A DNA stretch of 64,000 nt, from IMG/VR virus record IMGVR_UViG_3300023174_000053, positions 1 through 64,000 of that record; one strand, given 5' to 3'. Position 1 is the stretch's first letter; the number at the start of each line of letters is the position of its first letter. This document shows, one piece after another, positions 34,733 to 40,664 of the stretch. The notes under the pieces were generated by a model, which worked only from the letters and a program-made list of their open reading frames with translations, was not told where the DNA came from and ran no database searches. A program made the translations under genes and the position numbers. Origin of the DNA: a virus.

Positions 34733-35794
34733 TTAGAGTGCGTTCCCGCGAGGCAATACCTCATCAGGAAATACGAACCGTTCCCCTGGCTGGTCTATTG
34801 GTGCTAACCAAGCACGTAAGCCTTCGTTTAAAAGCACGTTTTTTGTGTAAAAGGTCTCGAATTCAGGGTCTTCAGCAGCACGAATCTCTTGACTCACGAA
34901 ATCATATGCACGAAGATTAAAGGCAAGGCCAATAATGCCAATGGAAGAAGTCCAAAGCCCCATGACTGGAACAAATAACATTAGAAAATGAAGAAATCTT
35001 TTATTACTAAAAGCAACACCGAAGATTTGCGACCAGAAACGGTTAGCAGTCACCATACTATAAGTCTCTTCCTCTTGAGTCGGTTCAAATGCTTTGAAGG
35101 TGTTTGCCTGGTCACTGTCCTCAAAGAGTGTATTCTCCACAGTAGCACCATGAATGGCACATAACAATGCTCCACCAAGAATACCTGCAACACCCATCAT
35201 ATGAAAGGGGTTGAGTGTCCAGTTGTGGAAACCCTGCAGGAATAGGAGGAACCTAAAAATCGCTGCAACACCAAAACTCGGCGCAAAGAACCAACTCGAT
35301 TGTCCGAGTGGATACATGAGAAACACACTGACAAAAACAGCAATAGGCCCAGAAAACGCAATAGCATTGTACGGTCTAATCCCTACTAAACGAGCAATCT
35401 CAAACTGACGAAGCATAAATCCAATTAGAGCAAAGGCACCGTGGAGAGCAACAAAGGGCCAAAGCCCTCCAAGTTGGAACCACCTGACGATATCCCCCTG
35501 AGCTTCAGGACCCCAGAGAAGCAGAAGAGAATGACCCATAGCGTCTGCTGGAGTACTAACTGATGAAGTAAGAAAGTTTGCACCCTCAAGATAGGAAGAT
35601 GCAATGCCGTGAGTGTACCAACTCGTAACGAAAGTTGTCCCAGTAAGCCAACCACCAAGAGCAAGATAAGCAGTGGGAAAAAGAAGAAGTCCAGACCATC
35701 CAACAAATATAAAACGGTCGCGTTTAACCCAGTCGTCCAAGACATCAAACCATCCTCTCTGTGAAACTGGTTGTGAAAGTGTAGATGAAACCAT
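34733..35794 (-). CDS. psbD: Photosystem II D2 protein
   Basis: [41 protein letters not shown]; ATG at 35794. Confidence 0.98.
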
Positions 35795-35862
35795 AAGCAC
35801 CTTTAGTATTTCTCATATTTATGTTATCATATCATAACATAGAAGTCAATGAGTGCTTTTAT

Positions 35863-36651
35863 TCAGTTTTTGATTTTCATTCCAGGTATCCAATTATCAC
35901 CAGGGCATTCTATACTCATTTTAAGATTTCCACAACCATCATTCCACCACTTTTTGCCTTTCATTTTGTCTCTCCTTTTTTTTCTGGTTTCTTCACTTAC
36001 TACATTTCTTCTTCCAAGAACCCAACCATCTCCGGGGCATTCATTAGACATACAGAATTTATTTATTGATAGATTATGCCACCATTTTTTTACTTTCATT
36101 TTGTCTCTCCTTTTTTTTCTGGTTTCTTCACTTACATTTCTTGATTTTTCCCCCAATTTCTTTCGTGTTTCTTCCGAAACAATTTTTCCTTTATGCACCT
36201 TACTCAATTTAAGTTTATGTTCTTCGGAAATGGTTTTACCATACTGGGGATGATTTTCTCCTTTCGATGCTTCACTTATTTTCCTTATATTTTCTGGGGT
36301 ATGTTTTTTTCCATAAAAAGGATTATTTTCACCTTTTTTTGACTCACCCATTTTTATTTTAGTTTCTTCACTTCGTATAGCACCAGAAGTCCCCTCACCC
36401 CCATCAGTTTTATTTCTTAAAATGCCTGTCCCCAAATCCTTTCTACCAAAGACAGCAATCATATACTTTTCGTGTTTGAATGCTTCTTGTTCTGTTAAAT
36501 TTTGTTTGAGAAATATTATTCTCGATTTATCATTTGGTAAAATAATACTTTCTTTTTTACCTTTTTTATATGCTCTATTATCTTTCCCCTTACCAATATA
36601 ATAGGGGGTTCTGTCTTCTCTCAAATAGGCATAAGTGTAAAAATCATTCAT
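35863..36651 (-). CDS. GIY-YIG-like homing endonuclease with NUMOD3 repeats
   Basis: YTYAYLREDRTPYYIGKG, LRNKTDGGEG, FYGKKH and a duplicated SEETRKKRRDKMK..KWW module. Confidence 0.8.
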   Translation of the reverse strand: MNDFYTYAYLREDRTPYYIGKGKDNRAYKKGKKESIILPNDKSRIIFLKQNLTEQEAFKHEKYMIAVFGRKDLGTGILRNKTDGGEGTSGAIRSEETKIKMGESKKGENNPFYGKKHTPENIRKISEASKGENHPQYGKTISEEHKLKLSKVHKGKIVSEETRKKLGEKSRNVSEETRKKRRDKMKVKKWWHNLSINKFCMSNECPGDGWVLGRRNVVSEETRKKRRDKMKGKKWWNDGCGNLKMSIECPGDNWIPGMKIKN

Positions 36652-37174
36652 AATTTTTGTATTTTTTTAGGTATAATACTGCGGATTGTAAGGTACTTAT
36701 ATTATCACCAACTAGTCCTAACATACGATTACAATTACTACAGAGCAACCCACGAACTTTACCTGTAGAGTGGTTGTGGTCTACATAAAGACTATTACTA
36801 TCTTTTCTACCATTAGTATTTGGATTTAAGCAAATAGCACATACCTCGTTTTGTTCTTGGAGGATATTTTCATACTGTTCCAATCCAAAATCTTTACCAT
36901 AAGTATACTTTAACATATAGTCCTTCTTCTCACTATAAGAAGGTCTCTTATCTCTATAAGTTTCACTATAACAACTCTTACATCTCTTATGACCTTTATA
37001 GTATTCTGATATTGGTTTTTCTACACTACATTTATTACAAGTAATATGAGTTTTACTAGACCAGTTTTCAGCATAAGTTTTTTCTTCGCATCTTATACAT
37101 CTTCTACGACCTTCTCTAAAATCAGAGGTAGGAAGTTCTTTGGTGCAAGTTCTACAAATCTTCGTGGTTCTCAT
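36644..37174 (-). CDS. Endonuclease VII-family homing endonuclease (F-CphI-like)
   Basis: CAIC...VDHNHSTGKVRGLLCSNCNRMLG; directly downstream of psbA. Confidence 0.85.
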   Translation of the reverse strand: MRTTKICRTCTKELPTSDFREGRRRCIRCEEKTYAENWSSKTHITCNKCSVEKPISEYYKGHKRCKSCYSETYRDKRPSYSEKKDYMLKYTYGKDFGLEQYENILQEQNEVCAICLNPNTNGRKDSNSLYVDHNHSTGKVRGLLCSNCNRMLGLVGDNISTLQSAVLYLKKYKNYE

Positions 37175-37226: not shown

Positions 37227-37254
37227 CAAAAAAAGAGACCCGTAAAGGGTCTCT
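37227..37254 (-). terminator. psbA terminator
   Basis: agagaccc / gggtctct hairpin plus a U-run. Confidence 0.8.
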
Positions 37255-37261
37255 AATGTTA

Positions 37262-38552
37262 TCAACCGATTGTTGGTGCAGTAAGAGCAACTTGTGTTGT
37301 CTCAGCAGCAGCAAGGTCTAAAGGAAAGTTATGTGCATTCTTAAACTTTTCTTAACTATCTGGTATTACTACCAGGATTGGACTATATCATCACCATTTC
37401 TGGTGTCGGACGCTTATTCCTGTTATTAAGGGAACTGTATCCCTCAGGTAGTCTCTGAACCTTTCTCAGATGTATCTGAGACTTGGCTGCTGATTGTCCC
37501 GTAGGATTTCCAGCAATTCATCCGATTTAAAGAGCGCAAAGCACAACTTGACGCTCATGAACCACTTCCAGTCCCAAATTTGCCCGATTAAGCACATCTG
37601 CCCAAGTAGGAATCACTCTACCTTGATGGTCAAGAATTGATTGATTAAAATTAAGACCATTAAGATTGAAAGATGAAACTGCAATACCCATAGCAGCACA
37701 CCAGATACCAAATACTGGAAGTGCAGCAAGGAAAAAGTGAAGACTACGGGAGTTATTGAAGGAAGCATATTGAAAAATAAGACGACCGAAATACCCGTGT
37801 GCAGCAACTATCGAATAAGTTTCTTCTTCTTGGCCAAACTTATATCCATAATTTTGAGATACTTGTTCGGTAGTTTCACGAACAATAGAAGAAGTCACAA
37901 GGGAACCGTGCATTGCTGATGCCAAAGCACCACCAAAAACACCAGCAACACCTAACATATGAAATGGATTCATAAGAATATTATGCTCTGCAGAAAATAC
38001 AAGCATATAATTAAAAGTTCCAGAAATACCAAGAGGCATTCCATCACTAAAACTTCCTTGACCAAAGGGATAAATCAAGAATACTGCGGTTGCAGCAACA
38101 GCAGGAGCACTATAAGCAACTGCAATCCAAGGACGCATACCCAAACGGTATGAAAGTTCCCATTCCCGACCAAGATAGCACCAGACACCAATCAAAAAGT
38201 GGAATACCACTGCTTGATATGCCCAACCATTATAAAGTGCTTCGTCAATAGAAGCAGCATCCCAAAGATTATAGAGATGCAGTCCAATCGCATTAGAAGA
38301 AGGAACAACAGCACCAGAGATGATGTTGTTTCCCCACATTAGAGACCCAGCAACAGGTTCTCTAATGCCATCAATGTCTACAGGGGGATTTGCAATAAAT
38401 GCAATAATAAAAACCGAAGTAGCAACAAGAAGGCAGGGAATCATCAGAACACCGAACCAACCAACATAAAGACGATTATCGGTAGAAGTCACCCAGGAAC
38501 AAAATTCGTCCCAGGCATTAAAAGTTTTGCGTGTAGCAATTGTAGCAGTCAT
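37262..38552 (-). CDS. psbA: Photosystem II D1 protein, spliced: exon 1 37551-38552 (334 codons), exon 2 37262-37339
   Basis: Exon 1 ends ...EVVHER; exon 2 reads [25 protein letters not shown]; the spliced product is 359 aa. Confidence 0.97.
37340..37550 (-). mobile_element. Group I self-splicing intron in psbA (211 nt, no internal ORF)
   Basis: The 5' exon ends in U and the intron ends in G. P1 GAGCGU/GCGCUC has the U.G pair at the splice site. Core elements P (AATTGCTGGAAA), Q (AATCAGCAG), R (GTTCAGAGACTA) and S (GATATAGTCC) are all present. Confidence 0.92.
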
Positions 38553-38700
38553 TTTTCGTTAAAGGGGTAGGTAATAGTTCAGGAGGTGCTGAACGGTAAA
38601 AGTATTCCTACGCAACCCTCCTGCGTAGGTATAAGGACGGATTTTACTTGCCTATTCCTGGTGCGGCAAGGTTAAGAAATGTGTTGATTCCTTAACATCT
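38553..38700 (-). ncRNA. Structured psbA 5' leader (PhotoRC-II-like motif)
   Basis: Four hairpins: gttaag/cttaac, cttgcc/ggcaag, cctacgca/tgcgtagg, gttcag/ctgaac. Preceded by the late-promoter-like site GATAAATA. Confidence 0.65.
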
Positions 38701-39089: not shown

Positions 39090-39584
39090 ATGAAAAGACT
39101 TCTATTAGCCTTTTCGTTATTCCTTACGACTCCTGTTTTTGCAGGTGAAATTACATCAACAATCACTGATTCCGTTCAATTAACAGTACAGGGTGCAGCG
39201 GTACAAACAGAAAGAATTGGTAGTTCCTATGCAGTTTCGGGAACTAATATTGGAGTTTCAGCATTAGGTGGATTGACTGGTGGTACATCAAGTGCAGCAG
39301 CAACAATGAGTGCTGGTACTTATGCTATTAATAATGATGGTCAAGCATTCACATTTGCAGAATCACTAACTGTTGGAGACAGCACTGTTTCATCACAAAC
39401 AGTATCTAATGGTGCGATTACATCACCAACTCTGTATGGTAAAAATACCACACAGGCAGCAGGTGATAAAGGTACTCTTGCAGGTACAATTAATACCTCT
39501 ACTGGTGCTCTCACATTTACTGCTGGTGGTGCTGGAACCACTGCTATTGGTCAACGTAGTGTAGAACTGAGCGTATTCAAGTGA
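39090..39584 (+). CDS. Secreted beta-rich hypothetical protein
   Basis: Signal peptide MKRLLLAFSLFLTTPVFA. Confidence 0.6.
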   Translation: MKRLLLAFSLFLTTPVFAGEITSTITDSVQLTVQGAAVQTERIGSSYAVSGTNIGVSALGGLTGGTSSAAATMSAGTYAINNDGQAFTFAESLTVGDSTVSSQTVSNGAITSPTLYGKNTTQAAGDKGTLAGTINTSTGALTFTAGGAGTTAIGQRSVELSVFK

Positions 39585-39940
39585 AACATATCCTAGCAGG
39601 CATTTGTCTGCTAGGGTTTTCTTTACCATCCCTAGCAGCTCCAGTCACACCAAACTTTACTAGTGGTACTGTAACTTCTCATACTGAATCCACCACAACA
39701 GTAAATGAGATAATTAGACAACAAGATTTCCAAACTGGATTTAGTTATACAGTTACTGGAACAAATATCAATATTCCAGGAACTCCAACTCTTGGAGCAG
39801 GATATTCTATTGTAAATCAAGGACAACCATTTCAGTTTTCAGAAACTTATATGGGTCCTGGATTGATTAAAGATACAACAGTCAATAGAACCACGACAAT
39901 TCAATCTGTCACAGATTCAATGTCAGTATTTACCCAATAA
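39581..39940 (+). CDS. Secreted beta-rich hypothetical protein
   Basis: Signal peptide ...SLPSLA; PVTPNFTSG. Confidence 0.6.
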   Translation: MKHILAGICLLGFSLPSLAAPVTPNFTSGTVTSHTESTTTVNEIIRQQDFQTGFSYTVTGTNINIPGTPTLGAGYSIVNQGQPFQFSETYMGPGLIKDTTVNRTTTIQSVTDSMSVFTQ

Positions 39941-39941
39941 A

Positions 39942-40664
39942 ATGAAATGCCTACAAACAATCCTTGCTCTAGGTGTCTTTGTTCTCCCTGCGTATGCAGA
40001 GGGGGATACTCCTGTAACTGCAATTGCAAATCCTCAGGCAACATCAACAGGAAGTGTAACAAACCAAGCAGTACAAGTCTTACAAGGTCCATACGTGACC
40101 AATTCATACGGTGGTGGAGTAAGTTGTCAGGGACCAACCTTTAATCTTACTCCCTTTATGACCACATCCAAAAGTGGTTCAAGACCTTTTGAAGCATATG
40201 CGGATATTGATAATGACCCAACCACAGGAATAAATGGATTAGAAAGAACTGGTCAAAAAGATACATTCTCAAATAACTTTGGTCTGTCAGCAACTCTTTC
40301 ATTTCCATTAGATGGTGGATTACAGGAAAGATGTAAGACTGCTGCAGATACTTGGACTGCTAGACAAAGAGCAGAAACAGATAAGGCGAGATTAGATTTT
40401 GAACTTGTAAGATTATTAAAATGTGGAGAAGCAAAGAAAGCAGGTATTTTCTTTATTCCTTCTTCTCCCTACGCAAGGATATGTGCGGATGTCGTCGTGA
40501 TTCAGCAAATTCCTGCCTCTGGCGTAATTTCTCAGCCTTCTGTTCCTTCTTCAAAAGTTTCAAAGTCTTCTTATCCAGTTCCAAAGCAAACAACATCTGA
40601 GTCTCGTAAGGCGTCAGATCTCGGTTCAACAATTGCTTCCCCCGAACAAAAGTTTGCTCAATAA
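39942..40664 (+). CDS. Secreted hypothetical protein
   Basis: Signal peptide ...LPAYA; SGSVTNQAVQ-like motif, CQGPT, LDFEL.RL..CG. Confidence 0.6.
   Translation: MKCLQTILALGVFVLPAYAEGDTPVTAIANPQATSTGSVTNQAVQVLQGPYVTNSYGGGVSCQGPTFNLTPFMTTSKSGSRPFEAYADIDNDPTTGINGLERTGQKDTFSNNFGLSATLSFPLDGGLQERCKTAADTWTARQRAETDKARLDFELVRLLKCGEAKKAGIFFIPSSPYARICADVVVIQQIPASGVISQPSVPSSKVSKSSYPVPKQTTSESRKASDLGSTIASPEQKFAQ

Follow-up and report, generated by a model that had tools for sequence, protein, structure and literature searches.

A mosaic phage D1 protein with rare residues at conserved positions and an intact set of water-splitting ligands

What kind of protein does a phage psbA gene encode when it departs from other psbA genes at positions that are normally conserved? 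Few known proteins are as conserved as D1, the psbA product, and the versions carried by phages usually differ little from host genes. We analyzed a 64,000-nucleotide stretch of viral DNA (the window) that contains such a gene and covers positions 1-64,000 of a 171-kb IMG/VR virus record (IMGVR_UViG_3300023174_000053; estimated to be 89% complete). We think it likely that this psbA gene encodes a functional, standard D1 carried by a phage, that derived blocks brought together by recombination plausibly retune the protein, and that it is kept by purifying selection. The best explanation for the carrier is an uncultured, low-GC, T4-like cyanomyovirus in which psbA is an auxiliary metabolic gene from a virus-only lineage.

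The gene is split by an intron and has three parts:

37551..38552, minus strand: psbA exon 1, D1 residues 1-334, from the open reading frame (ORF) and its translation.

37340..37550, minus strand: group I intron of 211 nucleotides (nt) without an ORF, after codon R334 (Rfam RF00028).

37262..37339, minus strand: psbA exon 2, D1 residues 335-359 and a TGA stop, from translation and a check of residues.

The start ATG at 38552 opens a 341-codon frame that is D1-like as far as ...EVVHER and then runs into unrelated sequence; the R334 codon closes exon 1 at 37551. Exon 2 encodes H337, D342 and A344, followed by a 15-residue C-terminal extension that resembles that of phage S-PM2, with a putative CtpA processing site. 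The intron matches RF00028 completely (87.3 bits, threshold 50; E 6.5e-22). By eye, the exon-end GAGCGU is pairable with intron GCGCUC to form P1, in which a U.G pair marks the splice site, and the intron has G as its final base. Without splicing, reading of the transcript would stop seven codons inside the intron and H337, D342 and A344 would be lost. The spliced product has 359 amino acids (aa) and no insertions or deletions, and canonical D1 numbering is valid for it.

We found that the protein has many residues that are absent or rare elsewhere. An earlier reading of the window, made from the sequence alone (the sequence-only reading), had listed 19 substitutions: A55N, Y73W, F93L, P95N, W105A, G110W, P111A, F182Y, Q187S, H195N, F211A, N247S, W278L, F285C, T286A, T292V, M293S, F300L and M331V. 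All 19 are real in an alignment of the spliced product. Further changes are A43V, T46S, C47V, I96L, E98D, L102I, L114A, F124W, V151A, A152V, V281F, S291A, A294S, S309H and M328L. For comparison we used about 260 viral, cyanobacterial and D1:1-isoform D1s. They comprise the best 80 IMG/VR D1 loci by similarity to the window; the best 80 loci in cyanobacterial genomes, from a scan of one genome per species (~185,000 species); 20 Cyanobiaceae psbA genes that are second copies, 19 with Q130 (D1:1-type); and 79 IMG/VR D1 loci drawn by a canonical 103-113 motif pattern, for which similarity to the window played no part. A further set consisted of 30 loci found in 151 genomes of Cyanobiaceae.

Fourteen residues (N55, N95, L96, D98, A105, W110, A111, A114, S187, N195, S247, F281, V292 and S293) were found in none of the sets, and the independently drawn viral sample gave counts of 0 at 14 positions. 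A211 (1/80), S294, L278, C285 and V331 were absent or nearly so. W105, G110, Q187, H195, N247, T292 and M293 were invariant in all of the ~260 comparison D1s. Y73W, F300L and M331V are rare (1-9%). Positions 278 (W/F) and 285 (F/L) are variable in phages, but L278 and C285 are themselves rare. The second-copy isoforms (20 Cyanobiaceae genes) had none of the derived residues. Across 160 reference D1s, 187 columns are invariant, of which the window D1 alters 9; it also contains 18 residues never seen in those references, for which the median is 0. In all, the lineage has replaced about 15-20 residues that the comparison D1s share without exception. The possibility that these residues are common in ordinary cyanophage or Synechococcus D1 did not hold for most of them. 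The description of the changed positions as normally conserved applies to most of the 19, but not to three that are ordinary in phage D1: F93L (27/80 similarity-ranked and 8/79 independently sampled viral loci), F182Y (63/80 and 14/71) and T286A (35/80 and 9/61). L223I is likewise ordinary in the independently drawn viral sample (14/65).

The protein as a whole is similarly distant from others. No D1 in 512 GenBank phage records was more than 82% identical to it, and among the best 80 IMG/VR loci the ceiling was 85%. In cellular genomes, identity did not exceed 84% (best 80 cyanobacterial loci) or 83% (144 of the 151 Cyanobiaceae genomes). The exon 1 protein matched itself at 100% in the 171-kb record and other D1s at 80-85%.

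We found that the residues associated with water splitting are intact. Every ligand that had been claimed as retained is present: Y161, D170, E189, H190, H198, H215, H272, H332, E333, H337, D342 and A344. Further intact D1 residues are D59, D61, E65, H118, Q165, S169, T179, Y246, H252, F255, S264 and N298. The spliced product therefore has a complete set of Mn4CaO5 ligands (D170, E189, H332, E333, H337, D342 and A344) and a complete cofactor set (YZ, Y161-H190-N298; P680 ligand H198; ChlZ ligand H118), together with the non-haem iron ligands H215 and H272 and the QB residues H252, F255 and S264. Residue 105, which is Trp in standard D1, is Ala in the window, and there is a Trp at 110. The protein is still classed as D1, W105 being conserved in the family but not required for catalysis. 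E130, G80 and F158 are present, as the sequence-only reading had stated; E130 is the high-light (D1:2) form, and 19 of the 20 second-copy genes have Q130.

The unusual number of changes at conserved sites might instead indicate a gene that no longer serves water oxidation: a pseudogene under relaxed selection, or a paralogue of the rogue/sentinel or ChlF-like kind that stands in for the reaction or blocks it. An unspliced transcript, which would lose three Mn ligands, could be taken in the same sense. The intact Mn/Ca ligands, YZ-H190-N298, P680 and iron ligands and QB residues argue against this, as do the open frame and an intron that scores as a complete ribozyme.

Among relatives, the derived residues occur in three separable blocks. 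Block 1 comprises residues 43-55 and 93-114, including W105A, G110W and P111A. Block 2 comprises F124W, V151A, Q187S, H195N and residues 285-309 (F285C, S291A, T292V, M293S, A294S, F300L and S309H). Block 3 is F211A with W278L, plus N247S and V281F. Locus L229 has window-type residues at 43-114 and is mostly ordinary at the other sites compared. P0018 (contig L168) has W73, W124, A151, S187, N195 and the 285-309 block, but W105 and G110. A211 and L278 are nearly the only derived residues in L072, P0026 and P0016, and L217 and L231 have blocks 1 and 2, but F211 and W278. All four combinations of 105 with 187 were found, and likewise all four of 105 with 211/278. Shared derived states use identical codons even where three base changes are needed (S187 is TCT in both the window and L168). 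Because the derived residues lie in separable blocks with identical multi-step codons, recombination among phage psbA alleles appears to be the simplest reading of the mosaic. A211 occurs without L278 in P0020 and P0025, and L278 without A211 was not seen. This hints at an order of appearance or at coupling; one shared recombined segment could also explain the pattern. AT-biased mutation as a cause of the changes was ruled out on inspection by the GC-rich Ala codons (GCA at 105, 111, 114 and 211).

The loss of W105 and the gain of W110 had been described as a compensatory Trp swap. In IMG/VR, 20 contigs have both A105 and W110 and at least 120 have neither; patterns for A105 alone or W110 alone matched only unrelated genes there. 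The two residues were thus never separated, which is compatible with a compensatory swap, but joint inheritance of the two codons, 15 nt apart in one block, could give the same pattern.

We found that the allele is not a one-off, as it might have been taken to be, but belongs to a recurrent metagenomic clade. In a large protein database, the single cluster at 95% identity was P0012, with 263 member sequences; several others were 85-86% identical. We looked for the A105/W110 motif with a degenerate DNA pattern, which identified 20 IMG/VR and 19 metagenome contigs, with some duplicates between the collections. At least nine contigs carry the full derived set or all but one or two of its residues, with aa identity up to 98.8% (L248); the full or near-full set is found in P0012 and in loci L212-L216, L226, L227, L233 and L248. 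Other relatives carry single blocks: P0019 shares block 1, P0018 and P0024 share block 2, and L072 shares block 3, each without the window's other blocks. In a maximum-likelihood tree, the window and P0012 group together (SH-aLRT 99) on a long stem (0.21), and P0019 is the next row (82). This group is in a 21-row clade (95) within a 69-row viral clade (97), which is nested among Cyanobiaceae D1. As the gene is mosaic, the tree should be taken as a summary and no more.

The variant D1 is under purifying selection of ordinary strength. We calculated nonsynonymous (dN) and synonymous (dS) divergence between the window and its relative L163, which are 87% identical in nt sequence: dS was 0.62, dN 0.044 and dN/dS 0.072. 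For 30 pairs of ordinary phage psbA genes at dS 0.4-0.9, the median dN/dS was 0.064, with a range up to 0.095. Among eight alleles with the full derived set, the median pairwise dN/dS was 0.106 at a median dS of 0.41. Within the derived blocks, measured in segments of 20 codons, the nonsynonymous proportion (pN) was 0-0.014 and the synonymous proportion (pS) was 0.12-0.37. A sweep of block 1 was considered separately: pS was lowest at codons 101-120 (0.12) yet above zero, and there was no clear sweep.

A dN/dS near 1 had been named as the sign of relaxed selection. The values found, 0.07-0.11, are far below 1 and are the reason that we do not regard the gene as decaying. Together with the intact ligands and the conservation of the derived residues across the clade, they bear out the description of a distinct phage variant. 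Signals for expression flank the gene:

38594..38684, minus strand: PhotoRC-II RNA motif, the psbA leader (Rfam RF01717, 47.4 bits, threshold 39).

37228..37254, minus strand: intrinsic terminator-like hairpin, AGAGACCC-TTTAC-GGGTCTCT plus a T run, directly 3' of the psbA stop, read by eye.

The hairpin is GC-rich, and the PhotoRC-II motif is also found 5' of psbA in the relatives L210, L218, L236, L245 and L247. The low dN/dS, the leader motif and the hairpin all speak against a decaying or non-water-splitting D1, which we consider highly improbable.

Has D1 changed more than its partner D2, which is encoded nearby?

34733..35800, minus strand: psbD (D2), ordinary phage type (Pfam PF00124).

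The listed start of this ORF is a GTG at 35800, and we made the D2 comparison from the ATG at 35794. The window D2 is 93.5% identical to the best phage D2, that of DSL-LC03, and 92% identical to that of S-PM2, in agreement with its earlier description as nearly canonical. Against the same seven phages, the window D1 is 80-82% identical and the window D2 88-93%. Ordinary phage pairs, in comparison, are 88-96% identical in D1 and 89-96% in D2. Judged by these identities, D1 is specifically accelerated relative to D2. The window D2 has W266F and F270L beside the iron ligand H268, plus A76S and A77S, all absent from seven phage D2 references; D2-F270 is a contact of the QA tail (PMC4030317).

The base composition of the two genes also differs. 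The G+C content at third codon positions (GC3) of the window psbA is 0.25, below that of all of the best 80 IMG/VR psbA loci (0.29-0.86). GC3 is 0.37 in psbD, 0.13-0.15 in phage structural genes and 0.68-0.92 in the Cyanobiaceae psbA copies found. Because GC3 is 0.25 in psbA and 0.37 in psbD, we think that psbA has probably been in low-GC phage genomes for far longer than psbD, with no re-supply from hosts.

These measurements bear on the idea that the allele was captured recently and mirrors the D1 of an unsampled cyanobacterial host carrying the same residues. Phage psbA genes do derive from hosts, and the three best cellular matches are metagenome-assembled genomes of poorly sampled freshwater picocyanobacteria (a lake-epilimnion Cyanobium bin, a 'Loclat' bin and another). 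However, cellular D1s reached at most 84% identity among the best 80 from ~185,000 species and at most 83% in the 151 Cyanobiaceae genomes, second isoforms included, and none of them has the derived residues. The allele itself was not found in any cellular genome searched (~185,000 species, one genome each, and the 151 Cyanobiaceae). In addition, GC3 is near that of phage genes and far from that of Cyanobiaceae, and the close relatives are all on phage-like contigs. Recent capture from a host is therefore improbable in our judgment.

The derived blocks fall at positions with published roles in photosystem II (PSII). D1-W105 is strictly conserved and links the beta-ring of the carotenoid CarD1 to the chlorophyll ChlZD1 (PMC6492235); block 1 takes away the Trp of this bridge and gains W110. 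A model of the surroundings of the Mn cluster includes P111, F182, Q187, S291, T292, M293, A294, M328 and M331 (PMC11784572). All nine are changed in the window, and every first-shell ligand is kept. D1-W278 and L200 surround the tail of a sulfoquinovosyldiacylglycerol (SQDG) at the 'QD' site near plastoquinone channel I (PMC10300377), and attractive contacts have been described between F211 and the QB tail (PMC4030317). Chlamydomonas mutants with F211 replaced, by Ala among others, are viable and more resistant to triazines, with slightly slower QA-to-QB transfer, and an F197/F285 double mutant evolves O2 (PMC3629139). The helix-A changes at 40, 43, 46, 47 and 55 may line the carotenoid, for which their spread on a helical wheel is only suggestive; a literature search on residues lining CarD1 (C47, A43, I96, L102, I50 and P95) gave nothing usable. 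A search of the open literature found no paper on H195 or Q187 mutants, and a 2026 preprint on high-light adaptation of cyanophage D1 and D2 makes no mention of W105, Q187, H195, F211, W278 or M293. The sequence-only reading had suggested possibly altered QB chemistry, lumenal interactions or turnover. The literature on the positions is what supports this suggestion, and the effects themselves stay conjectural.

We propose a mechanism that draws on the known S-PM2 system and on D1 biology, from which we infer splicing in vivo, assembly into PSII and any change in photochemistry. The gene would be transcribed behind the PhotoRC-II leader, and the group I intron after codon 334 would splice itself out, restoring H337, D342 and A344. 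The D1 precursor would enter the host thylakoids and be trimmed after A344 by the host C-terminal protease. The phage D1 would then replace photodamaged host D1 beside an ordinary phage D2, so that PSII would keep running through infection. Block 1 would remodel the CarD1-ChlZD1 Trp-bridge site, block 2 would alter the second shell around YZ, P680 and the Mn cluster, and block 3 would alter the surface formed by the QB tail, SQDG and the plastoquinone channel. Together, the three blocks could retune side-path photoprotection, donor-side energetics and quinone and herbicide binding, with water oxidation kept. Such changes may have been possible because the phage needs the protein for hours and not for generations; once fixed, the blocks would be held by ordinary purifying selection.

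Several points weigh against this reading. Some within-clade pairs reach a dN/dS of 0.37. Synonymous divergence from ordinary phage D1 is almost saturated (dS 1.1-1.9 or undefined), so that positive and relaxed selection are indistinguishable on the stem branch. The missing A105-only and W110-only intermediates may just reflect the inheritance of one 15-nt block. The grouping into three sites draws on published residue lists and in part on the general structure of PSII. Finally, the phenotypic effect could be nil, as it would be under compensated neutral drift.

Under such drift, the gene would be functional, and its odd residues would be without phenotype. They would have accumulated in a lineage that had stopped recombining with host psbA, with the aid of hitch-hiking and gene conversion around mobile introns, and would now be frozen by epistasis. 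This fits the strong amelioration of psbA to phage composition (GC3 0.25), a clade with many group I introns and homing nucleases, elements that favor gene conversion, and a within-clade dN/dS like that of ordinary phage psbA. Single changes at F211 and F285 are also tolerated in Chlamydomonas (PMC3629139). In contrast, W105, G110, Q187, H195, N247, T292 and M293 are invariant in the ~260 D1s, and W105 is strictly conserved (PMC6492235), so that changing them can be argued to have an effect. Replacements of F211 measurably alter herbicide binding and QA-to-QB transfer (PMC3629139), and the derived blocks have been repeatedly combined, not diluted. We regard drift without phenotype as possible, although somewhat doubtful.

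The retuning that we favor has a stronger form, which we hold only tentatively: a redesign of the PSII reaction center made by phages, in which the bridging Trp has shifted from position 105 to 110, the titratable His195 has been lost along with Gln187, both next to P680/YZ, and F211A and W278L have opened the QB-tail/SQDG wall. If this were true, side-path photoprotection, charge recombination and quinone exchange would be changed to the benefit of the virus, for example by more electron throughput or a less regulated turnover of PSII during the hours of infection. Residues fixed in cells for billions of years would then be needed only for the long-term cellular use of PSII.

The lineage offers a natural, selection-tested and modular set of changes at positions that mutagenesis rarely reaches, namely W105, G110, Q187, H195, N247, T292, M293 and F211 with W278. 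It opens questions about the need for the CarD1-ChlZD1 Trp bridge, the donor-side role of H195 and Q187, and the part of the QB-tail/SQDG wall in quinone exchange and herbicide binding. It also indicates that psbA and psbD of one phage genome can differ strongly in history, and that certain viral psbA lineages have ceased to follow host genes, a point to consider when psbA serves as a marker of host or ecotype.

The surroundings of the gene are those of a phage genome. Genes around psbA include a gp26-like baseplate hub, thyX, phoH and a lysozyme, and the local order is psbA with its intron, an ORF of the endonuclease VII (EndoVII) family, a second ORF and psbD:

36644..37174, minus strand: free-standing endonuclease VII-family ORF, 176 aa, at the position of F-CphI in S-PM2 (Pfam PF02945, 76 bits).

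35863..36651, minus strand: NUMOD3-repeat ORF, 262 aa, a second putative homing nuclease (Pfam PF07460 NUMOD3, 80 bits).

The gap between psbA and psbD (35863-37174) thus holds two different putative homing nucleases, which overlap by 8 nt; the NUMOD3-repeat ORF has a GIY-YIG-like N-terminus, judged by eye. The sole plus-strand gene group near psbA (39090-40664) consists of three ORFs with signal-peptide-like starts; the two of them that were scanned had no Pfam match. Megablast of 25 kb of the window gave only short matches of 72-78%, and a close isolate relative was not found. A freshwater or estuarine origin is suggested, the sole hints being the titles of the best cellular matches and the sample names.

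Relatives of the gene vary in their surroundings and in their introns. P0012, which is 95% identical to the window D1, and P0019 are the closest intronless relatives. In their contigs (L163, L164-L167), psbA is followed by unknown ORFs and a metallophosphatase, and psbD was not seen 3' of psbA (over ~2.4-6 kb in L163 and L164); therefore, the variant D1 apparently need not come with a phage D2. Many relatives in the clade have three to five introns in psbA, compared with one in the window. In the A105/W110 relatives L210, L211, L236, L245 and L247 (also L213, L218-L225 and L243), psbA is in three to six pieces, with breaks after about codons 60, 77, 185-195, 226 and 331-337 and gaps of 200-950 nt. 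Rfam matches gave five group I introns in the psbA of L236, four in L245 and three each in L210 and L211. In L168 and L169, the contigs of P0018, the D1 frame stops at ...HERNAH (337 aa), and the next ~400 nt are non-coding, which suggests an intron three codons 3' of the S-PM2 site. Breaks in tblastn alignments at 337/338 in L217, L229, L234 and L235 agree with this downstream site. L168 and L169 also have a small ORF 5' of psbA with a faint Psb34-like Pfam match. P0050, which is annotated as the photosystem II q(b) protein of Synechococcus sp. UW140 and lies on a contig of 12 kb, clusters with the divergent viral clade, with which it has C285, A291, S293, L300 and H309 in common. Phage DNA in the assembly of a culture is one possible source; another is a host gene that came from a phage.

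How does the window D1 compare with known systems? The best GenBank phage matches are the D1s of the isolate cyanophages S-CREM1, S-CBP4, S-B64, S-H35, S-WAM1, S-RIM32 and DSL-LC03. They share E130, F163, Y182 and the general viral D1 type with the window, but they are at most 82% identical to it, and A105/W110, S187/N195, A211/L278 and the V292/S293/S294 set are absent from all of them. In laboratory mutants of Chlamydomonas, replacement of F211 by Ala, Ser, Gly, Thr or Ile and of F285 by Cys or Leu likewise gives viable, O2-evolving PSII (PMC3629139). Those mutants are single or double changes in a canonical background, whereas the window changes are natural, occur with about 30 others and are conserved in a clade.

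Microaerobic D1' and rogue or ChlF-type D1 resemble the window D1 in having changes at conserved sites. The markers of D1', which we take to be G80A, F158L and T286A together, are represented in the window only by T286A, and A286 is common in phage D1. The window keeps G80 and F158 and is not a microaerobic D1', in line with the sequence-only reading. It differs from rogue/sentinel and ChlF-type D1 in that no Mn ligand is lost and in its place inside the tree of standard viral and Cyanobiaceae D1.

The closest parallel in gene arrangement is the psbA-psbD region of S-PM2. There, the intron and the free-standing nuclease F-CphI form a published 'collaborative homing' system (PMC6083498). The two regions differ in several respects: exon 1 is only 71.5% identical in nt and 81% in aa sequence; the EndoVII-family ORF is only 33% identical in aa sequence to F-CphI and has 176 aa, compared with 142 aa in S-PM2, its assignment depending on the PF02945 match and the equal position; and the second ORF, the NUMOD3 nuclease, is unrelated to S-PM2p181 (18% identity). 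The likeness is in the order of the genes (psbA with an intron, an EndoVII-family ORF, a further ORF and psbD), in D2 (92%), and in the intron, which has 96.2% identity to the S-PM2 intron and interrupts psbA at the same position, behind codon 334. No raised identity to S-PM2, as would mark an exon co-conversion tract, was seen near the splice site. The high identity of the introns beside an exon 1 that matches so much less suggests that the intron is a recent mobile, horizontal arrival in a very different psbA.

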